Origin: Candidatus Saccharimonadota bacterium
GTDB lineage: Bacteria; Patescibacteriota; Saccharimonadia; CAILAD01; BJGX01
Assembly (NCBI GenBank): GCA_046350735.1
Contig: JAXLZU010000001.1
Coordinates: forward strand, 204,530 to 268,529
DNA length: 64,000 bases
Reading direction: 5' to 3'
The notes beneath the pieces are model-generated. The model did no database searches. It was given only the letters and a program-made list of their open reading frames with translations, and was not told where the DNA came from. Shown piece after piece: positions 4,804-27,487 of this stretch. How positions within the stretch are numbered: position 1 is the first letter of the stretch; every line of letters begins with the position of its first letter. A program made the position numbers and the translations under genes.

Positions 4804-6627
4804 ATGACTACCAGTGAAATTCGTTCTAAATTCTTAGAATTCTTTAAAGAAAAAGATCATCAAATAATTCCATCAGCTCCAGTGGTGCCAGAACATGACC
4901 CGACCGTACTATTTACTACTGCCGGTATGCATCCGCTTGTGCCGTATCTTTTAGGTACACCACACCCTCAAGGTAGACGTTTGGCCGATGCCCAAAAATG
5001 TATTCGCACAACCGATATCGATGAGGTGGGTGACAATACGCATTTAACATTTTTTGAAATGTTAGGTAACTGGAGCCTGGGCGATTATTTTAAGAAAGAA
5101 TCAATTGCTTGGAGCTGGGAGTTTCTTACCAGCAAACGTTGGCTCGGTATTGATCCTCACAAACTCTATGTAACGGTATATGAGGGCGATGGTGAAGTGC
5201 CAAAAGATGAAGAATCTATTGCGCTATGGATAGAGCAATACAAATCTGCCGGTATAGATACTCAAGAAGGAGACAGGATTCTCGCACTTGGGCGAGAACA
5301 TAACTGGTGGGAGCAAGGCGGAGTGGCTACTGGCCCAGCCGGACCAGATACCGAAATATTTTATTATGTAGGCCAAGAAAAAGACCCTAAATTTAGTGAA
5401 GACAATGATGATTTTGTAGAGATTTGGAACAATGTGTTTATGGCGTATCAACGTCAGGCCGATGGCAGCTATAGTGAGCTAGAAAATAAGAATGTTGATA
5501 CTGGCATGGGCTTAGAACGAACCAGTTTTATCTTGCAGGGACTAAATAATGTGTACGACACAGATATGCTTTCTCAAATAAAATCGGCAGTACATAACTA
5601 TGCTGCCGAGGTTAGAGAGCCGAGTTTTGTGGCTACCCATCCAGACACGGCCGAGCGAGCTGAGAGAATTATTACTGACCATAGTAGAGCAATTACATTT
5701 ATGGCGGCTGACGGTGTTGTGCCAAGTAATAAAGACCAGGGCTATGTTATGCGACGTTTGGCACGCCGAGCTATTCGCGAGGCATTGGTAATAGGTATTC
5801 AGCACGATCTCTTTGCTCGAATTGTTCCACGTGTGGTTGCTCTCTACGAAGATGAGTATCCAGAGTTAGGAATCAATCAAATACAAATTATGGAAGTGCT
5901 CAAACGCGAAGAAAATGCGTTTAGGCAGACACTTACTCGAGGTCTAAAGGAATTCGAAAAACTTCTTACTAATAAAAAAGAACTTGATGGCCATACCGCT
6001 TTTACGCTATATGACACCTATGGTTTTCCAAAAGAACTCAGTCTTGAGGAAGCTAAGCGGATTAATCTTTCTATCTCAAAATTATTTGAGGCCGAGTTCG
6101 ATCAGCAATTAGAGGCCCAACGCAGTAGAAGTCGTAGTGCTACTGCTGGACAATTTAAAGGTGGGCTGGCCGATAATAGCGAAATTGCCACGCGCTACCA
6201 CACCGCAACACATTTAATGTATAAAGCTTTACGCAATGTGTTGGGTGACCATGTAATGCAGAGGGGAAGTAATATTACCGCCGAGCGTATGCGGTTTGAC
6301 TTTAGTCATGGCGAAAAAATGACGCCTGAGCAAATCAAACAAGTAGAAGATATGGTAAATGAGCAGATTGCCAAAGACCTACCAGTAACGTTTACCGAGA
6401 TGAACAAAGACAAGGCATTTGAGGCTGGAGCTCTGGGTGCCTTTGGTGAAAAATATCCAGATACAGTAAAGGTATATACTGTCGGTGATCCAGAAGGAGA
6501 TTATTACTCTAAAGAAATTTGTGGTGGCCCGCACGTAAGTAAAACGTCTGAGATAGGCAAGTTTAAGATAGTAAAAGAAGAGTCGAGCTCGGCCGGCGTA
6601 CGGCGTATAAAAGCAGTTATAGAATAG
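4804..6627 (+). CDS. alaS: alanine--tRNA ligase, short form lacking the C-Ala domain
   Basis: Class II catalytic core, HxxxH editing motif (HTATHLM) and CGGPHV zinc site. The ORF ends after the editing domain at 607 aa. Confidence 0.9.
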   Translation: MTTSEIRSKFLEFFKEKDHQIIPSAPVVPEHDPTVLFTTAGMHPLVPYLLGTPHPQGRRLADAQKCIRTTDIDEVGDNTHLTFFEMLGNWSLGDYFKKESIAWSWEFLTSKRWLGIDPHKLYVTVYEGDGEVPKDEESIALWIEQYKSAGIDTQEGDRILALGREHNWWEQGGVATGPAGPDTEIFYYVGQEKDPKFSEDNDDFVEIWNNVFMAYQRQADGSYSELENKNVDTGMGLERTSFILQGLNNVYDTDMLSQIKSAVHNYAAEVREPSFVATHPDTAERAERIITDHSRAITFMAADGVVPSNKDQGYVMRRLARRAIREALVIGIQHDLFARIVPRVVALYEDEYPELGINQIQIMEVLKREENAFRQTLTRGLKEFEKLLTNKKELDGHTAFTLYDTYGFPKELSLEEAKRINLSISKLFEAEFDQQLEAQRSRSRSATAGQFKGGLADNSEIATRYHTATHLMYKALRNVLGDHVMQRGSNITAERMRFDFSHGEKMTPEQIKQVEDMVNEQIAKDLPVTFTEMNKDKAFEAGALGAFGEKYPDTVKVYTVGDPEGDYYSKEICGGPHVSKTSEIGKFKIVKEESSSAGVRRIKAVIE

Positions 6628-6635
6628 CTAATAAA

Positions 6636-6661
6636 ATGAAGCGAGCCCCTGCGGATGCAGG
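6636..6661. terminator. bidirectional hairpin gagcccctgc-ggat-gcaggggctc between alaS and the convergent high-GC gene
   Basis: Perfect 10-bp stem. A T-rich tract (ttcattttatt) follows when read on the minus strand. Confidence 0.45.
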
Positions 6662-6698
6662 GGCTCTGAGGTGGACGCCACGTCGGCGTTTGGTCGAG

Positions 6699-7217
6699 TC
6701 AGGGGAGAGGGAGACCGTACTGGAGTCCCTCGGTGCTGACGCAGGTGGCAGGGGCCGAATCCTGCCTTTCGAAGGGCACGGCCTCGAAGGAGGCGATGCC
6801 GAACGACTGCCCGTCGTCGCTGACCAGGACAGGGGCGGTGCACCTCTTCTGCTGCACCTCACCCTGGGTCCAGGTGGCGACGAGCTGATCACCCTTGTAG
6901 GTGACGCTCATCGACACGAGCGGCCCGACACCCGGGTCGGTGTCGTTGAAGCGTGCCCGGAGGACCGCTTCGGCCTTGACGCGTGTCATCTCCCTCTCTG
7001 CCTCGCCGTTGTCACCGCGCGAAGCGATGAAGGCGACGAGAGCCACGACGACCACCACGGCGGCGATGACGAGCACCCACGTGTTGCGGGTGTTCTTCTT
7101 CGCCTTGCCGCGCTGCGGCTCGGGCTTCGCCTTGGCGGGTGTAGGGCCGGTCGGCTGGTTGATGGTACTGGTCACTTCTGACCTCTTTCCTCTCGTTCTA
7201 CGATGGAACATTAGCAT
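6699..7217 (-). CDS. high-GC (about 65%) membrane-anchored two-Cys protein, paralogue of the adjacent low-GC gene 7375..7941
   Basis: Basic N-terminus, one TM, and an extracellular domain. It shares AERE...CTAPV...DD...AVPFE...C with its neighbour. Start taken at MLMFHRR (start codon 7215-7217); the six-frame ORF extends to 7280. Confidence 0.55.
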   Translation of the reverse strand: MLMFHRRTRGKRSEVTSTINQPTGPTPAKAKPEPQRGKAKKNTRNTWVLVIAAVVVVVALVAFIASRGDNGEAEREMTRVKAEAVLRARFNDTDPGVGPLVSMSVTYKGDQLVATWTQGEVQQKRCTAPVLVSDDGQSFGIASFEAVPFERQDSAPATCVSTEGLQYGLPLP

Positions 7218-7374
7218 TATACGCCACAAACATAATAAAGTCAATACTTTTTGACAATTTATTTTAGCTAAATAAAGCAATAAAAAGATATTATTATCAG
7301 TACTATATTAACAATTATTAACAAATAAAATACCCACATCTCTTCGATGTGGGAAAATTGTTTATAGACTCTAT

Positions 7375-7941
7375 TTAATTAGCACCCAAACCTGCTAATG
7401 ATACTGTGGCTACACACTTATATCGAGAAGTTGCTAAGTTTTCGAGCGGAACCGCATCAACTCTATCTACCCAGTAGAGATTGTGTTGATCATCGGGTGG
7501 GTTAACCGGAGCGGTGCAATGAGCATTGCCCTGTGAGAAGCTTACTTCCATAGGGCTGCCAAAGGGATATTGTACCGTAACACTATCAATATCAACTTGG
7601 TTATTGCTTGGTAACTTCTGATTGAGAATAGTTGCGTAGGCTTTTAGCTCACGCTCAGCCGTAGTGCGGTCTAGCTCGTGACGATACGTCAACCATATCA
7701 AAGTAACAATGCCCACCAGTAAAAGTGTAATCAGAATAGAAATACCGGCTGTAACAAAGCTAGAGCCTCTCTTTGCAGCCTTCTTGTTACTTGCAGAACT
7801 GGGTGTCTGGCTGGGCAAAACACCAAAATCACGTGCTTCCACGTGCTGGCGTGCCAACTCGCGCTCTTCATCGGTTAATAGTCGCCTACTTGCTTGCAGA
7901 CTATGCTGCTGAATATCAGCAACTGCTTGCTCTGTGCTCAT
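7375..7941 (-). CDS. membrane-anchored two-Cys protein, native low-GC paralogue
   Basis: 188 aa: cytoplasmic N-terminus, TM, and a C-terminal domain with CTAPV...AVPLE...KCVA, homologous to 6699..7217. Confidence 0.6.
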   Translation of the reverse strand: MSTEQAVADIQQHSLQASRRLLTDEERELARQHVEARDFGVLPSQTPSSASNKKAAKRGSSFVTAGISILITLLLVGIVTLIWLTYRHELDRTTAERELKAYATILNQKLPSNNQVDIDSVTVQYPFGSPMEVSFSQGNAHCTAPVNPPDDQHNLYWVDRVDAVPLENLATSRYKCVATVSLAGLGAN

Positions 7942-17710: not shown

Positions 17711-17787
<77 letters not shown>

Positions 17788-17919: not shown

Positions 17920-20229
17920 ATGTCAGAAAGAACTCCATCACCAGCAGAGCCTCTGTATCGTAAATATCCAGATTTGCACAAATCTCAGTCAGTAGAGCAC
18001 GAGGTTGCTCGTCTGCGTCAGCATGGTGAGCGTATTCCCAACGAGCCGGCACCCAAGCTAGAAGCTTGGCTTCGGTTATTAGAGAGAACCCACACGGGTA
18101 AAGGTGGTAGTGAGGCCCGCCAAGCCGCGCAGCCACAAGTATACGAGCGCATAAAAACTCTCTACCATCGTCCAACTCAAGAAGGTGGCTATATTACTGG
18201 TCTTGACGATACCTCTATAGAACGGTATTTACGTCATCAAGCTCGTATTGCCCACGAGCAAGGCCACGGCGCTATTGAAGATATTATGGCCCGAGCGAAT
18301 GACCAAGTGCGAGCCGAGGCCAGAGAGACGATTCGAACCGACCAAGAACGTAGTCTCGATGCCTGGCTAGATTACCTTACCTCTGATGATGCCACGTACC
18401 CAATGTGGTTTAAATACTACACCTTCCGCAACATTACCCGTCTGGCCGAGTACGACAAACAAAAGGGTGAGTTCCCCAAGCGTTCTAAATCTACCACTGC
18501 ACCGTTCCCAGATATTAATCGCGAAGCCTTGGCGTATATGGAAGACAGCTTAGCCAAACACTATGGCCTCAAAGATATTGATCCAGATAACCCTAAGGAC
18601 GCTATCGACCCAGAAACTCAAGCGCTCTTAGACAAAGATGCCAACTTTGCCAGTCTCTACAGGCGTGCCATTGAATACGCTGCCCCCAAACACGCCGAAC
18701 AGCTCAATGTTACTGATGGTCGGTGGGTAAAGTACGACCAGACAAGTGACGAGAGTAAGAGTAAAGAGCTAGCCCACTCATTACATGGCTATGGCACAGG
18801 TTGGTGTACCGCCGGTGAGGGCATGGCGCATAGCCAACTGAGTGGTGGTGACTTTTATGTCTACTATACCAAAAGCGAAGATGGTCAGTACTCGGTACCT
18901 CGTGTAGCTATCCGCATGCAAGAAGAATATGGCCAGCAACACATTGCTGAGGTGCGGGGAATTGAAGCCGACCAGAACATGGAAGCAGCGTTGGTACCAA
19001 TTGCCGATGCCAAGCTTGCTGAGATAGACCCTGCAGGTGCTGAACGATACAAGAAACGCTCAGAGGACATGCGCCGCCTCACCGAGATAGACAACCTGCT
19101 CAAAGCTAATCCGAGTGCCGAGCTTAGCAAAGACCAGCTGAGATTTCTCTACGAACTAGATAGTAAGATTGAAGGCTTTGGTTATAACAAGGACCCACGG
19201 ATTGCCGAGATATTACAAACTCGCAACCCAAGGGTTGATTTGGCCTTTACATTAGATGTACAGCCCGAACAAATTAGTCTAACAAAAGAAGAGGCGTTGA
19301 GGGGCAATATAATCTATCACTATGGTAATCTCAACCTCAGCGGCCTGACCTCAGCCGAAGGCTTACAGCTGCCCGAGACGATCGGTGGTAATCTCGACCT
19401 CAACGGCCTGACTTCAGCCGAAGGCTTACAGCTGCCCAAGACGATCGGTGGTGATCTCGAACTCAGAAGCCTGACTTCAGCCGAAGGCTTACAGCTGCCC
19501 AAGACGATCGGTGGTTATCTCGACCTCAACGGCCTGACCACGGCCGAAGGCTTACAGCTGCCCGAGACGGTCGGTGGTGATCTCAACCTCAGCGACCTGA
19601 CCACGGTCGAAGGTTTACAGCTGCCCAAGACGGTCGGTGGTTATCTCGACCTCAGCGACCTGACCACGGCCGAAGGTTTACAGCTGCCCGAGACAATTGG
19701 CGGTGATCTCTACCTCAGAAGCCTGACCTCAGCCGATGGCTTGCACCTGCCTAAGACGATCGGTGGTGATCTCAACCTCAGAAGACTGACCTCAGCTGAT
19801 GGCTTACAGCTACCCAAGACGGTCGGTGGTGATCTCTACCTCAACGGCCTGACCACGGCCGAAGGTTTACAGCTACCCAAGACGGTCGGTGGTTATCTCA
19901 TACTCGAAGGCCTGACCACGGCCGAAGGTTTACAGCTGCCCGAGACGGTCGGTGGTGATCTCTACCTCAACTACCTGACCTCGGCCGAAGGTTTACAGCT
20001 ACCCGAGACGGTCGGTGGTGATCTCTACCTCAACGACCTGACCACGGCCGAAGGTTTACAGCTACCCAAGACGGTCGGTGGTGGTCTCATACTCGAAGGA
20101 CTAACCTCAGCCGAAGGCTTACAGCTGCCCGAGACGATCGGTGGTTATCTCGACCTCAGCAGCCTCGGTGCTGCAGATATAGCTACCCTGAGACAGCAAT
20201 ACCCTCTATTAGCAGACATGATTTATTAA
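17920..20229 (+). CDS. large hypothetical protein: 460-aa N-terminal domain plus 13 tandem 20-aa LRR-like repeats
   Basis: 769 aa with no signal peptide. The C-terminal third is LTSAEGLQLPxTIGGxLxLxx repeated 13 times. GC is about 52%, above the local background. Confidence 0.7.
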   Translation: MSERTPSPAEPLYRKYPDLHKSQSVEHEVARLRQHGERIPNEPAPKLEAWLRLLERTHTGKGGSEARQAAQPQVYERIKTLYHRPTQEGGYITGLDDTSIERYLRHQARIAHEQGHGAIEDIMARANDQVRAEARETIRTDQERSLDAWLDYLTSDDATYPMWFKYYTFRNITRLAEYDKQKGEFPKRSKSTTAPFPDINREALAYMEDSLAKHYGLKDIDPDNPKDAIDPETQALLDKDANFASLYRRAIEYAAPKHAEQLNVTDGRWVKYDQTSDESKSKELAHSLHGYGTGWCTAGEGMAHSQLSGGDFYVYYTKSEDGQYSVPRVAIRMQEEYGQQHIAEVRGIEADQNMEAALVPIADAKLAEIDPAGAERYKKRSEDMRRLTEIDNLLKANPSAELSKDQLRFLYELDSKIEGFGYNKDPRIAEILQTRNPRVDLAFTLDVQPEQISLTKEEALRGNIIYHYGNLNLSGLTSAEGLQLPETIGGNLDLNGLTSAEGLQLPKTIGGDLELRSLTSAEGLQLPKTIGGYLDLNGLTTAEGLQLPETVGGDLNLSDLTTVEGLQLPKTVGGYLDLSDLTTAEGLQLPETIGGDLYLRSLTSADGLHLPKTIGGDLNLRRLTSADGLQLPKTVGGDLYLNGLTTAEGLQLPKTVGGYLILEGLTTAEGLQLPETVGGDLYLNYLTSAEGLQLPETVGGDLYLNDLTTAEGLQLPKTVGGGLILEGLTSAEGLQLPETIGGYLDLSSLGAADIATLRQQYPLLADMIY
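19324..20163 (+). repeat. 13 near-identical in-frame 60-bp tandem repeats
   Basis: Each unit is ctgac(c/t)(t/a)c(a/g)gccgaaggcttacagctgccc(g/a)agacg(a/g)tcggtggt(g/t)atctc... and encodes 20 aa. Confidence 0.85.
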
Positions 20230-20749: not shown

Positions 20750-21082
20750 ATGCCCACCAAATCAGAACCAGTCTATTTTTGGCTATGTGCCGATTGCGAT
20801 TTTTCTGTAATTGGCAGTGCAGAAGAAGCTGGCAAGCACTTTGGGCAGAAGGGTTGTTGGGGGCATTATATTTATGAATTTGTTTTAGAAAAAGATAGGC
20901 CTCTTCCATTTTCGGCTACAGGATCAGAGATACATACATCAGATTCATTGGTTGCCGATTACTATCTATCGCCCCGCAGCGAAGATGTAGATTATGTCTA
21001 TAAGACATTCTTTAAAAGAAAGTATAATGCGGCTGTAGAAAAATTATTTGCCAAACCAGTTGCAGCAAATAGCGACTCCTAG
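20750..21082 (+). CDS. hypothetical protein with a CxxC...CWGH zinc-ribbon-like motif
   Basis: 110-aa ORF; terminator hairpin at 21076-21104. Confidence 0.45.
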   Translation: MPTKSEPVYFWLCADCDFSVIGSAEEAGKHFGQKGCWGHYIYEFVLEKDRPLPFSATGSEIHTSDSLVADYYLSPRSEDVDYVYKTFFKRKYNAAVEKLFAKPVAANSDS

Positions 21083-21245
21083 TATTACTAGGAGTATTTT
21101 ATTGTTACCAATTGGCATAGCAAACTATGCAATTAGCTCTCACTATCTAGTGTGGCTACTTGCGCAGTGCATAAATATAGAAAAATATCTATAAATATGG
21201 TAAAATACCGAAGTTCTAGTCAGCACCTTCAAAAAAGGGAGCCAG

Positions 21246-23078
21246 ATGCTCACAGAGGCCATTGCATTGGCACTAAGACACGGCACATATGTGTATGACA
21301 ATAAAGGCATTCTAGATAAAGAAAAAGCAACCTTCTGTTTTGACGATGGCGACTTTACACCCAACTACTCGCGCGAAGACTTTGCTGCATCAGAAGCTGC
21401 TTTGCTAAATAGACACATCCAGGGCTTGCAGGCAATGTCGCCGCAAGATGAACACTTAAGGGCTTTGGGGCCACAGTACGTTAGTACACGGCTAGGTAGC
21501 CAGAACCGCAAAGATGCACTACGAAATGCACGCAAACACACATTCTTGCCAGTAACACCAGAGTGGACAGATAGAGATGTCGAGTACCAGCTAACTCTGT
21601 TGGGCACTTGGCTAATGCGAGAGGCTCAGCGGAATTTGCCGTTTGGTTGCGTAGAAGCTGCCATTGGATTTTCGCAAAAGAGTCTAAAAGAGCGAGAAGA
21701 GAGACTTAAGGTAGTTTTTGAATATCTTCTGTGCAGTAATTGGTACGCAATTAACGAGTATCGAGCCAAAAAGTTTGCAGAAGAAAAGCGACATAACCCA
21801 CTAGAGGTGTTGCCTCGACAGTACGGCCAGTATCCATCGAGTCTGGTGCGGCCGAATTGCTTAGGTATTAGTGCTATGCTCTGTGGCTGGTGCGAGCTAG
21901 CTGGTGTGGAGTATATGTATGTAAATACTGTTCGCGATAGAAGCAGTACATTTGCTGAGATGTTGGTAGAAACCATTAAGTACTCACTTGCTTGGTGCCA
22001 GCAGCACGAAATTACTCTCTCCGAGGGAGATCTTTTTGCAATGCAGTCTCAGCTAGATGAGTTTACAAACCCCCATAGCGCAAGCCGTTTTCATCATTGT
22101 GTGGCAGTAAAGATGGCAGACGATTATTGGCTGATGTTAGATCCGTACCAAGAGCTATTGTTGCCCATCTCGCCTATAAATCACAGAACTGGCGACAGTA
22201 TAGAAGAAACGTATAGGCTGCTTTGTAGGATGCAAAGCAGCCTACCAGGTGTAGTTGTGCAGTATGAGTCAGAAGACTACGAAGCTATTCGAGGACCAGC
22301 CGAGAATCGTATTCAAGATAGTTTTGTGAGTGCGGTAGATGCTAAGTTATATATACAGTATTTTGGTAAAGACCCAGATACGTTATTTGGTGCAATTAAT
22401 CTTGCTCTCAAAGAAGGGTGGTTTGCGAGCTTTTGGGAAGATAATTGGCAGTCTTGTGGAATTTCGGGTAGCCACTTAGCATTTCCAGATAAAAAACGAG
22501 GTATTAACCATAGAACCTTTTATGAATGTATGTACGGTTGGGTAGGTGCATCAATACTAAACCTTGCCTCTGGCTATCGGTTTTCGAGTCTCGAAAAGTT
22601 AAAAGCCTATTATTCTGCAAACGAGGGTTTTGCTTACCGATACAGAGAATTGTTTCAGGCACTACCAATTATATTGTTTGTGCAGCAAATGCAGAAGTAT
22701 GTGTATGATGACAAATCTCAATATAACCACTTTGTAGTAGAATTTGGTAACCCGGCTTTTCAATTAGCGTGCAATACACTTAATCATTTGAGTGCATGGG
22801 ATGAAGAGTTTTCTGCTATGGTCTCACCGTTTGATATTGCAAAATTTAGTGGTAGCCAACTTATCTGGCACGATGCCTTGGCAAGGTGGTATAATACTGA
22901 CCAGTCTCACCAGGATGCTGAGTGGGAGACGTACCTTATTTCTCAACTTTGTAAATTAGAGAAGTACCAATGGCACTTCCAAACCCGGCAACTACTCACT
23001 TACCCCGACCAGGAGGAACCCAAAGATGCCGAGAATGACGAAAGAGCAGAAGGCAGCCGAGATCATGAAGCTGCGTAG
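21246..23078 (+). CDS. hypothetical 610-aa protein with a transglutaminase-like Cys-His-Asp core
   Basis: NCLGISAMLCGWCELAGVEYMYV (Cys) and HHCVAVKMADDYWLMLDPY (His, Asp), spaced as in TGase-like cysteine peptidases. The last 16 codons lie in the high-GC segment. Confidence 0.55.
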   Translation: MLTEAIALALRHGTYVYDNKGILDKEKATFCFDDGDFTPNYSREDFAASEAALLNRHIQGLQAMSPQDEHLRALGPQYVSTRLGSQNRKDALRNARKHTFLPVTPEWTDRDVEYQLTLLGTWLMREAQRNLPFGCVEAAIGFSQKSLKEREERLKVVFEYLLCSNWYAINEYRAKKFAEEKRHNPLEVLPRQYGQYPSSLVRPNCLGISAMLCGWCELAGVEYMYVNTVRDRSSTFAEMLVETIKYSLAWCQQHEITLSEGDLFAMQSQLDEFTNPHSASRFHHCVAVKMADDYWLMLDPYQELLLPISPINHRTGDSIEETYRLLCRMQSSLPGVVVQYESEDYEAIRGPAENRIQDSFVSAVDAKLYIQYFGKDPDTLFGAINLALKEGWFASFWEDNWQSCGISGSHLAFPDKKRGINHRTFYECMYGWVGASILNLASGYRFSSLEKLKAYYSANEGFAYRYRELFQALPIILFVQQMQKYVYDDKSQYNHFVVEFGNPAFQLACNTLNHLSAWDEEFSAMVSPFDIAKFSGSQLIWHDALARWYNTDQSHQDAEWETYLISQLCKLEKYQWHFQTRQLLTYPDQEEPKDAENDERAEGSRDHEAA

Positions 23079-23274
23079 GGCTGGTATGAGCGATGCTCAG
23101 ATCATCGCCGAGCACAGCAACTTGCAGGCCGGCTACGTCTGGCTGCAAGAGAACCCCGATGGCACAGCCGAGGCCGAGTCGCCGAAGCGCCCCGTTGGTT
23201 CTGGCTCGTCGCCAGCACGTCTGCAGCCACAGCCGAGCTACGGTGCCGAGTTTCGCACCCCTCAGCTCAGCTAG
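23026..23274 (+). CDS. small ORF in a high-GC (about 62%) segment, HTH-like N-terminus; possibly a gene fragment
   Basis: MPRMTKEQKAAEIMKLRRAGMSDAQIIAEH resembles a resolvase or transposase-type HTH. Followed by Pro/Ser/Gly-rich low complexity. Confidence 0.3.
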   Translation: MPRMTKEQKAAEIMKLRRAGMSDAQIIAEHSNLQAGYVWLQENPDGTAEAESPKRPVGSGSSPARLQPQPSYGAEFRTPQLS

Positions 23275-23282
23275 AACGTTTA

Positions 23283-23309
23283 CCAGTCTTTAACGAGACT
23301 GGTTTTTTT
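23283..23309 (+). terminator. rho-independent terminator ccagtct-ttaacg-agactgg-TTTTTTT
   Basis: 7-bp stem plus T7. Confidence 0.6.
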
Positions 23310-23379
23310 ATTGTAACTTTTGTTTATGAGAGAAAATTACCCTATAATTATTTTACTTTCTCTATAGAAAGAGGAGCAA

Positions 23380-23778
23380 ATGAACCTTTTAGATGTATTG
23401 CCAGAGCGGTTTTTTATCGATACTCTCACGATTGCAACATACGATGAATTCTTTGCGCTTGGGCCTCCATGTATGTATTGGTGGCAAGATCCTCAAAAAG
23501 ATCAACCGTGGCCAACGATACAGTTAGCACAAAAAACAGCTGTTAGGCTGTGGCATGGTAGAGTGCAGGTTATTCGCATGGGTGACTATTTGGTGTGGTG
23601 TAATTCAGACCCAATAGAGATAGGGGTAGTTAGGTATAGTGCACATGAGATTAATGACTTAAAAATAGTATCGGTACCAGAAATAGCTAGCTCTCTCAGT
23701 GAAGACCTGTGGGTAGCATGGATAGTAAGTAAAAAGCTAACTCATCAAGAAAGTGATGAGCTCAATAGTGACTTCTAG
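23380..23778 (+). CDS. hypothetical protein
   Basis: 132-aa ORF; hairpin terminator at 23772-23796. Confidence 0.45.
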   Translation: MNLLDVLPERFFIDTLTIATYDEFFALGPPCMYWWQDPQKDQPWPTIQLAQKTAVRLWHGRVQVIRMGDYLVWCNSDPIEIGVVRYSAHEINDLKIVSVPEIASSLSEDLWVAWIVSKKLTHQESDELNSDF

Positions 23779-23835
23779 TACAACTAGGAGTTTTTTATTG
23801 TCACAAAATTTACTTGTCTACGTTATTTCTGTATC

Positions 23836-26776: not shown

Positions 26777-27487
26777 ATGACGCACATGGGAGAAATAGTA
26801 ATGTCACAAAAAAGTGAGCAAGCACCAGAACCGGTAGATATTTATTTAGATGTTGATCATGTTTGGCAACTCGACCCAGAACATAATATTCCCGAAAACG
26901 AACGCCGTACAATTTGTGCAATTGCCTGCATGAAGATGATTATCGACTATGTTGTGCCAGATAAAGCCAATCTTAGCTTGCATAGTATATTTAATGAAAT
27001 GCGAGATTCTGGTGGGCAAAATAGTAATATGCACTGGAAACATGCTGACGAAGTTAATTATTTTAAGAAACTCAATCTAGTATCGTGGCGAAGAAATTGG
27101 CTGGCGCCAAATCCAGACCCAAAATGGTTTGCCGAAAACGAGGAATATAATAATCAACAGCTGGTAGCTGTATCAGAACAAATGAAAGATGAGAGTCTTG
27201 CAGGTGGTTATACTAAACAGGCTCTCCATAGTATCCGTCAATCATTAGATGCTAACTTGCCAGTAATTGTGAGCGTGGCAGCGGGTTTTAGTGAAAACAG
27301 ACAAGATCATCAGATTGTTGTTAATGGGTATGGCAGCGATGGAAAGAACGAATGGTTATATTATGTAGACCCAGTTCTTTCTCCAGAAAAACATCAAGAT
27401 AGACAGAAAGTATCACTCGAGTATTTCTTAAAATTCTTTAATAACAGAGCAATCTTTGTAAAACAACCTACGCCATCTGAAATTTGA
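26777..27487 (+). CDS. hypothetical protein with a papain-fold (C39-like) Cys...His...Asp signature
   Basis: RRTICAIACMKMIIDY (Cys) and DHQIVVNGYGSDGKNEWLYYVDP (His, Asp). No signal peptide. Confidence 0.45.
   Translation: MTHMGEIVMSQKSEQAPEPVDIYLDVDHVWQLDPEHNIPENERRTICAIACMKMIIDYVVPDKANLSLHSIFNEMRDSGGQNSNMHWKHADEVNYFKKLNLVSWRRNWLAPNPDPKWFAENEEYNNQQLVAVSEQMKDESLAGGYTKQALHSIRQSLDANLPVIVSVAAGFSENRQDHQIVVNGYGSDGKNEWLYYVDPVLSPEKHQDRQKVSLEYFLKFFNNRAIFVKQPTPSEI

Follow-up and report, generated by a model that had tools for sequence, protein, structure and literature searches.

A 64,000-nt stretch of the genome of a Candidatus Saccharimonadota bacterium (GenBank assembly GCA_046350735.1, contig JAXLZU010000001.1, forward strand, positions 204,530 to 268,529; hereafter the window) contains a short GC-rich block near position 23,000. 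A first, sequence-only reading took this block for a piece of acquired or contaminating DNA fused to the 3' end of a gene for a protein of 610 amino acids (aa). Our analysis points elsewhere. The block holds the whole of an 82-aa gene, which is very probably the native and complete distal cistron of a two-gene operon conserved in Candidatus Saccharibacteria. In the core of this claim, that the gene belongs to a conserved operon and is neither foreign nor chimeric, we have at least as much confidence. The gene has inherited its high GC content, which is not a sign of recent foreign DNA or of mis-assembly.

A compositional outlier that ends at a stop codon

The GC content of positions 22995-23280 is 61.2%, compared to a window mean of 41.8% (286-nt windows; standard deviation 4.9%), which corresponds to a z-score of 4.0. 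The high-GC island that had been put at ∼62% is thus real. At the 286-nt scale, values of 58% or more are reached at three places in the 64 kb, namely 6542-7256, 19314-20197 and 22947-23315. With 40-nt windows, GC content goes up near 22960-22980 and comes down past 23260. The climb begins near 22975-22985, ∼40 nt before the ATG of the 82-aa open reading frame (ORF), where the 610-aa ORF has not yet ended. The downstream end of the block coincides with the stop codon of the small ORF.

At codon positions 1, 2 and 3 of the 82-aa ORF, GC content is 0.61, 0.51 and 0.75, respectively. Third-position GC content (GC3) averages 0.36 (standard deviation 0.09) across 71 non-overlapping ORFs of the window, among which the only other comparable outlier is 6699-7190 on the minus strand. 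The small gene therefore has the atypical base composition of an acquired islet (61% versus 42% GC; GC3 of 0.75 versus 0.36). Codon optimization was considered as a cause of the elevated GC3 and rejected, because the genes for ribosomal protein S16 and KhpA have the lowest values (0.25-0.27).

The small gene is complete and belongs to a Saccharibacteria family

The product of the 82-aa gene begins MPRMTKEQKAAEIMKLRRAGMSDAQIIAEH. When orthologues are aligned, the variable columns number 25, 24 and 50 at codon positions 1, 2 and 3, and the ratio of nonsynonymous to synonymous divergence (dN/dS) is ∼0.27. A word-indexed search returned six close homologues at 73-95% identity, five of them 82 aa long and one annotated as 72 aa, and an exhaustive HMMER profile search of 1.84 billion representative proteins gave 15 matches at E ≤ 1e-3. 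Small members among these profile matches are 71-87 aa in length, and a conserved head followed by a tail is common to all of them. A search for related loci with alignment A1 yielded just three genomes at species level. The gene is thus complete; the suspicion that it was a gene fragment did not hold up against a full-length family with the same layout in each member. Every family member with a source name comes from Candidatus Saccharibacteria (one of the six close homologues is named). The family is undescribed and restricted to Saccharibacteria, although a small partner protein resembling a helix-turn-helix (HTH) protein is in itself an ordinary kind of object. Our literature search found nothing on this small-protein family or on GC islands in Saccharibacteria.

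The heads share the pattern M..K..(E/Q)KAAEI.KLR..G.SDA.II...L.AG(Y/F).WL.ENP. After the head comes a Pro/Ala/Ser-rich tail in which G58-x-G60 is invariant (GSG in most members), and a C-terminal Y-x-AEFRTP-x-L motif is found in the close relatives. AlphaFold2, run with the family alignment, predicts helices at residues 6-18, 23-29 and 31-42 with a predicted local distance difference test score (pLDDT) of ∼86, and a disordered tail (pLDDT 54-67). Sub-threshold Pfam matches among 18 members were mostly to HTH families, with DUF433 in three, HTH_68 in two, and HTH_23, MerR_1 and HTH_7 in one each; no other kind of match recurred. The three predicted helices and these recurring matches lend a little weight to the HTH-like N-terminus proposed at the outset, none of the matches being at threshold.

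A conserved pair of overlapping genes

The 610-aa ORF extends 53 nt into the small ORF in a different frame, so the overlap of the HTH-like ORF with the 3' end of the longer gene, as first described, is genuine. In every locus with recovered upstream DNA, the small gene lies directly 3' of a homologue of the 610-aa gene and overlaps it. The overlap measures 53 nt in loci L012-L018 and L027 (partners of 610-612 aa, 74-77% identical), 56 nt in L021 (a partial partner sequence, 54% identical), 11 nt in L022-L024 (685 aa, blastp E = 2e-19) and 8 nt in L029-L031 (693 aa, blastp E = 6e-31). In more divergent Saccharibacteria, with genomes of 53-54% GC, homologues of the two genes likewise sit next to each other and overlap. 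Within the overlap, variable columns number 1, 4 and 7 at codon positions 1, 2 and 3 of the small gene. Variation concentrated at these third positions indicates that selection in the overlap acts mainly on the small gene, and that the last ∼17 codons of the 610-aa ORF, which encode acidic residues, are weakly constrained read-through.

In each lineage, a Shine-Dalgarno sequence lies 7-9 nt ahead of the start codon of the small gene. At this site CCAGGAGGAA is kept in seven close relatives, and three distant relatives have AAGGAG or AAAGGA at equal distance from the start. A programmed frameshift joining the two ORFs was also considered and is unnecessary, since no lineage lacks a Shine-Dalgarno sequence or a start codon for the small gene. 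Upstream of that start, the open part of the small frame differs between lineages in length and sequence.

Right after the stop codon of the small gene is a G+C-rich stem-loop followed by seven T residues, as in Rho-independent terminators. This element is kept in eight relatives, where the closing pair shows compensatory changes (GC in four, AU in three, CG in one) and a G-U change occurs within the stem. The native-looking terminator that had been placed at 23283-23309 is hence confirmed, as the stem-loop 23282-23303 plus the T-run. On the upstream side, a terminator-like hairpin at 21075-21095 closes the preceding gene, just before a promoter-like site (Table 1). A consensus scan found six promoter-like sites in the region compared to 7.6 expected, and hence their number is not above chance.

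Between the operon terminator and mscL lies a 132-aa ORF without a family match (23380-23778, plus strand), which has its own terminator-like hairpin at 23770-23792 and is seen in the window's lineage only. At L012, L016 and L019, the small gene is followed directly by mscL.

Table 1. Positions of the two genes, their predicted signals and the GC-rich block in the window
Feature	Coordinates	Strand	Description
Candidate operon promoter	21178..21206	+	TAGAAA-17-TAAAAT, extended TG; 40 nt before the 610-aa ORF
610-aa ORF, proximal cistron	21246..23078	+	Uncharacterized Saccharibacteria protein; last ∼28 codons inside the GC-rich block
GC-rich block	22975..23280		∼61% GC; spans the 610-aa ORF tail, the ribosome-binding site and the entire 82-aa gene
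Shine-Dalgarno sequence	23011..23016	+	AGGAGG inside the 610-aa coding sequence, 9 nt ahead of the small gene's ATG
82-aa gene, distal cistron	23026..23274	+	HTH-like head (residues 6-42) and disordered Pro/Ala/Ser/Gly tail
Intrinsic terminator	23282..23310	+	ACCAGTCTTTAACGAGACTGGT then TTTTTTT; stem-loop 23282-23303 with a 9-bp stem and a 4-nt loop

The junctions are reproduced in independent assemblies

Given that the composition shifts abruptly at both sides of the block, one could suppose that assembly had spliced a segment of some high-GC genome into a contig of low GC content, and recurrent chimeric contamination was among the first explanations offered. However, 14 contigs, drawn from no fewer than 10 independent samples (a JGI metagenome, an ENA assembly and several SRA runs), encode exactly the same 82-aa product, and on all 14 its gene sits between the 610-aa ORF and the next gene. 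The region 22800-23500, which includes both junctions, aligns from end to end at 99-100% identity in 10 independently assembled loci. In diverged relatives, at 74-82% nucleotide identity, the same order of 610-aa gene, small gene and terminator is kept. Moreover, the upstream reading frame and the downstream terminator run continuously with the block. As far as public assemblies can show, these data refute an assembly chimera, and the residual probability of such an artefact is negligible.

High GC content is shared by relatives across deep divergence

The small gene is GC-rich in relatives as well. At L012 and L016 it has a GC content of 59-60% and a GC3 of 0.73-0.80, with flanks at ∼40% GC, and across relatives with flanks of 38-42% GC, the orthologous blocks are at 56-62%. 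For seven close orthologues, GC3 ranges from 0.63 (L025) to 0.77, with six of the seven at 0.73-0.77; the more distant L021 orthologue has a GC3 of 0.60. Most members examined fall at 59-64% GC with a GC3 of 0.71-0.77, in genomes of 40-54% GC, and in two relatives the gene is lower, at 56% with a GC3 of 0.60-0.63. In the Saccharibacteria of 53-54% GC, the small gene has a GC content of 64% and a GC3 of 0.71-0.72, similar to the values in the clade of 40% GC. Several neighbours without a Pfam match in those 53-54% GC genomes (L023:9458-11324 and L029:7769-8924) show a GC3 of 0.74-0.91, compared to ∼0.6 for groEL and pgi, and strong gene-to-gene heterogeneity in GC3 may be general in this phylum.

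The window was compared with L012 and L016. Flanking genes (GC3 of 0.29-0.41) have a proportion of synonymous differences (pS) of 0.66-0.84 and a synonymous divergence (dS) from 1.6 to unmeasurable, whereas pS in the small gene is 0.39-0.49. After correction for composition, synonymous codon turnover in the small gene is 0.48-0.78 of saturation, versus 0.77-1.01 in six flanking comparisons; the samples behind these values are small (42-62 codons). Among seven orthologues, 28 of the 46 degenerate codons that are invariant at the amino-acid level show both G/C and A/T third bases. Third positions are thus turning over, although six of the seven sequences stay at a GC3 of 0.73-0.77. Outgroup-polarized parsimony counted 1158 third-position changes from G/C to A/T and 586 from A/T to G/C, which gives an equilibrium GC3 of 0.59. 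For the neighbouring 900 nt of the 610-aa ORF, where the actual GC3 is 0.36, the same procedure returns 0.47, a clearly lower value. Since the estimates are drawn towards 0.5, 0.59 is probably too low for the small gene.

Was the gene acquired from elsewhere?

Cultivated Saccharibacteria live on Actinobacteria, and recent uptake of part of a gene for a resolvase, a transposase or a regulator, with the actinobacterial host or another high-GC organism as its source, would account for a GC3 of 0.75 in a genome of GC3 0.36, and for a second GC-rich gene at 6699-7190. The search for a source speaks otherwise. No homologue beyond the 71-87 aa family was found among the 1.84 billion representative proteins, and phage and plasmid collections yielded no match to the small gene. 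Around the block we found no flanking direct or inverted repeats, no mobility gene and no mobile-element borders, and the nearest tRNA gene is 5 kb away. The small gene occupies the same site in every relative whose site can be read (L020 being one possible exception), including relatives whose flanks are near synonymous saturation and which share its GC-richness, and its family is full-length, not a fragment. Among 18 members, HTH_7 (PF02796) and HTH_23 (PF13384) each matched one, at E = 0.17 and 0.04. The small protein does share G-x-S-D-A-x-I-I-A...L-x-A-G-Y-x-W-L within a three-helix unit with the HTH domains of resolvases and transposases, but in every member it is a protein by itself, and a recombinase or transposase catalytic domain is attached in none. 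With no significant match, no catalytic domain and no mobile-element features nearby, the resolvase/transposase assignment finds no support. Nor does the idea of repeated small-scale acquisition of high-GC DNA, insofar as it means recent actinobacterial uptake, which we judge very improbable.

A much older event within the phylum is less easily dismissed. At the base of the low-GC clade, a copy from a higher-GC Saccharibacterium could have displaced the resident small gene along with the 3' tail of its partner, and then ameliorated unusually slowly. The composition of the members in 53-54% GC genomes (64% GC; GC3 of 0.71-0.72) suits such a donor, and the excess of 1158 over 586 third-position changes amounts to a modest net loss of G/C. 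At L020, moreover, the partner gene stops (...QWHFRNRHL*) exactly where the GC-rich block starts, and the contig ends 2 nt later; a metagenome scan for sequence downstream of an L020-type partner gene recovered only the contig already known. Beside the high-GC gene at 6699-7190 lies a distantly paralogous gene of low GC content (7375-7941, minus strand; 29% identity, E = 2e-7), as would be expected for an added foreign copy.

Against an ancient replacement, HxQxxQLL is present in the 685- and 693-aa partner homologues too, and the ∼26-29 residues after it are again encoded in part across the start of the small gene, a layout that requires no insertion. The 82-aa protein is just 42-44% identical to the sampled members from higher-GC genomes, and with a flank dS above 1.6, neutral decay would be expected to have brought GC3 well below 0.73-0.80. 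On balance we consider ancient replacement unlikely, though not to be taken lightly.

In summary, the small gene resembles GC-atypical acquired islets in being a sharp compositional outlier that coincides with gene limits. It differs from them in being present at one locus in all sampled relatives with a divergence shared with its neighbours, in the failure to find a donor, repeats, a border tRNA or a mobility gene, and in a composition that has not ameliorated across saturating divergence.

What might maintain the GC-richness?

The other compositional outlier, 6699-7190, is also a conserved gene. It has 12 homologues and encodes a single-pass membrane protein with two conserved Cys residues. 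Its orthologue at L028:5001-5513 (54% identity), located beside ftsA in a context of 44-47% GC, has a GC content of 68% and a GC3 of 0.91. The sequence-only reading had linked the block at 6638-7200 with that at 22995-23280. The link itself was right, in that both reflect a persistent, gene-specific composition; contamination is not what connects them.

One explanation would be that the nucleotide sequence of the small gene has a second function, for instance as a binding site for a protein, as a structured RNA or as part of an overlapping or antisense gene. The reduced synonymous turnover of the small gene and the independence of its composition from genome GC content are in line with this, and the antisense frame in codon register is stop-free in seven of nine orthologues. 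However, any gene with a high GC3 has few TTA, CTA and TCA codons, which explains why that frame is open, and just 50 aa follow its first start codon. The remaining two sense frames have variable stops, and apart from the frame explained by codon bias, no conserved alternative frame, overlapping or antisense, was found. Neither is there a sign of conserved RNA structure: RNAalifold run on eight orthologues showed no covariation outside the terminator (covariation term +0.57), the minimum free energy z-scores of -0.75 on the plus strand and -1.4 on the minus strand are not significant, and no Rfam match reached gathering level (best E = 0.31). A second function of this kind is therefore rather improbable.

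Alternatively, a local recombination hotspot with GC-biased gene conversion could be at work, with exchange among lineages lowering synonymous divergence and raising GC3. This has the attraction of explaining both effects by a single process, and 6699-7190 provides a second short gene with the same pattern. Yet the small protein has diverged in amino-acid sequence by 20-27%, which is no less than its neighbours have, the limits of the block match those of the gene and not any recognizable recombination signal, and direct evidence of recombination is lacking. We rate such a hotspot as more doubtful still.

A broader possibility, which we offer as speculative and somewhat unlikely, is that the small gene and the 6699-7190 gene are held at ∼56-64% GC (GC3 of 0.60-0.91 in the orthologues examined) by an undescribed constraint at the nucleotide level, whatever the composition of the host (40-54% GC) and even over saturating divergence. 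Such a constraint might come from an embedded DNA or RNA signal, or from gene-specific recombination or conversion in Saccharibacteria.

The partner protein

The full-length 610-aa protein has no match in Pfam, PHROGs, NCBIfam, PADLOC or PDB sequences, and its homologues are 54-97% identical to it, apart from the distant ones of 685 and 693 aa. When these two are included in the alignment, PNC(205)LG, W215-C216 (WC(216)xLA), H283, W295 and D299 are invariant, and C205, H283 and D299 are kept across homologues down to 23% identity. A search with the core fragment gave Transglut_core as the sole Pfam match, at E = 0.17 and 12.6 bits, below the 23-bit cut-off. As in transglutaminase-like proteins (PF01841), the residue order is Cys...His...Asp, with the invariant Cys (PNCLG) at the start of a predicted helix and the His and Asp on predicted strands downstream; unlike them, the 610-aa protein is much larger and has long helical flanks, and the match is sub-threshold (12.6 versus 23 bits). 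The conserved residues may thus mark a transglutaminase- or papain-like Cys-His-Asp centre, which we treat as a lead, not a result.

A possible role for the pair

In the arrangement we propose, the 610-aa and 82-aa proteins would be encoded by a bicistronic operon that ends at the terminator 23282-23310 and may start from the weak candidate promoter at 21178-21206. The two proteins would be made together via translational coupling and would act together. The HTH-like head of the small protein would serve for DNA binding or docking, and the disordered tail would bind the putative Cys-His-Asp enzyme. The 82-aa protein might then be a regulator of the 610-aa protein, or a partner that neutralizes it in the manner of an antitoxin. 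This specific role, together with the interaction and the enzyme class, is put forward tentatively, and we hold it with far less confidence than the operon itself.

One of the closest known parallels is with the DUF433/COG2442 antitoxins, which pair with PIN-domain toxins (PMC2701414, PMC3834315). Like these, the small protein has ∼80 aa, with a small HTH-like helical head and then a disordered tail that ends in a conserved motif, and its gene overlaps the partner gene and appears from the gene arrangement to be co-transcribed with it. DUF433 is also the commonest sub-threshold Pfam match (3 of 18 members); on the window protein, DUF433 (PF04255) scores 13.1 bits (E = 0.084), below the 23.6-bit gathering threshold, and the best member reaches E = 0.069. 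The differences are considerable, however. The partners, at 610-693 aa, have no PIN or other known toxin domain, no PIN gene was found beside the small gene in any locus, and the small gene here is downstream of its partner, not upstream. Toxin-antitoxin modules are mobile and patchily distributed, whereas the 82-aa/610-aa pair is chromosomal, syntenic and vertically conserved. The predicted head with its disordered tail and the overlap in a terminator-bounded operon would fit the layout of type II toxin-antitoxin modules; the partner is far above typical toxin size.

The small protein could instead be a substrate, that is, a precursor peptide cut or modified after G-x-G by a papain-fold domain of the 610-aa protein or by a C39-like peptidase. 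Its layout would fit, with a conserved head, the invariant G-x-G and then a short C-terminal segment carrying a conserved motif, and so would the adjacency to a gene for a putative Cys-His-Asp enzyme. The window has a Peptidase_C39_2 gene at 26777-27487 (plus strand), 3.5 kb past the small gene, and L012 and L016 have it as well. In double-glycine-leader precursors of the RiPP or bacteriocin type, though, a canonical leader helix ends in a GG, GA or GS motif, and a cognate transporter with a C39 domain is encoded nearby. G58-x-G60 lies in a disordered region with no such helix ahead of it, and no transporter of the peptidase-containing ATP-binding cassette type, nor any other ATP-binding cassette transporter, is found in the vicinity. 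Only among the low-GC relatives, where it is syntenic, does this stand-alone C39_2 gene lie close to the pair; at L022-L024 and L029-L031 it does not. By hhalign, the 610-aa family shows no similarity to the C39_2 product. We think it improbable that the 82-aa protein is a substrate.

Observations that weigh against a native operon and its proposed role

Several points count against the interpretation favoured here. Most bear on function. The small protein matched no family at threshold in Pfam, NCBIfam, PHROGs or PADLOC, and Foldseek found no match to its model in the PDB. Basic residues, which a DNA-binding HTH usually has, are absent from the region that would form the recognition helix (LQAGYVWL). 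For the partner, the AlphaFold2 model is unusable (pLDDT 36), and the idea of a Cys-His-Asp centre is based on invariant residues and a Pfam match at E = 0.17. PDB sequence searches with profiles A1, A3 and A5, for both proteins, returned only chance matches (protein A repeats and TIM18).

One population (L005, SRR6837555) has a nonsense codon in the 610-aa ORF. A T-to-A change at L005:2424-2426, equivalent to window positions 22788-22790, turns Leu515 from TTG to TAG; it is the single difference over 1833 nt, and the small gene is intact. This could reflect a pseudogenized partner or a sequencing variant.

Other points concern the history of the gene. L020 leaves room for a lineage lacking the small gene, and hence for a history of insertion. 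The argument that the gene has not ameliorated relies on few codons (42-62) and on parsimony counts that are known to be biased.

Other GC-elevated regions

Upstream of the GC-rich gene at L028 is a short stretch of 57-65% GC (L028:4300-4600). A 168-aa gene has been called there, with an implausible translation and odd GC values of 0.44, 0.59 and 0.53 at the three codon positions; it may be mis-called or decayed. The third GC-elevated region of the window, 17920-20229 on the plus strand, has a GC content of 52% overall and up to ∼58%, notably at 19314-20197. It encodes a 769-aa protein with ∼14 tandem repeats of 19-20 aa (LTSAEGLQLPKTIGGDLDL, leucine-rich-repeat-like), for which no significant Pfam domain was found. 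A tRNA-Ala gene (17711-17787) is immediately upstream.

Implications

The operon adds to Saccharibacteria an unannotated two-gene module, consisting of a protein of ∼600-700 aa with invariant Cys, His and Asp residues and a partner of ∼80 aa. There is also a practical side. A GC island in a metagenome-assembled genome of the Candidate Phyla Radiation is usually flagged as contamination or recent transfer, and trimming it here would delete a real gene. In this genome, a strongly atypical composition has persisted over long evolutionary times in no fewer than two short genes. Should selection on nucleotides lie behind this persistence, they would make a useful test case for what sets GC content in reduced, AT-drifting genomes. 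And if an undescribed nucleotide-level constraint does hold them at high GC, compositional islands of this kind would be functional features of epibiont genomes, not scars of gene transfer.

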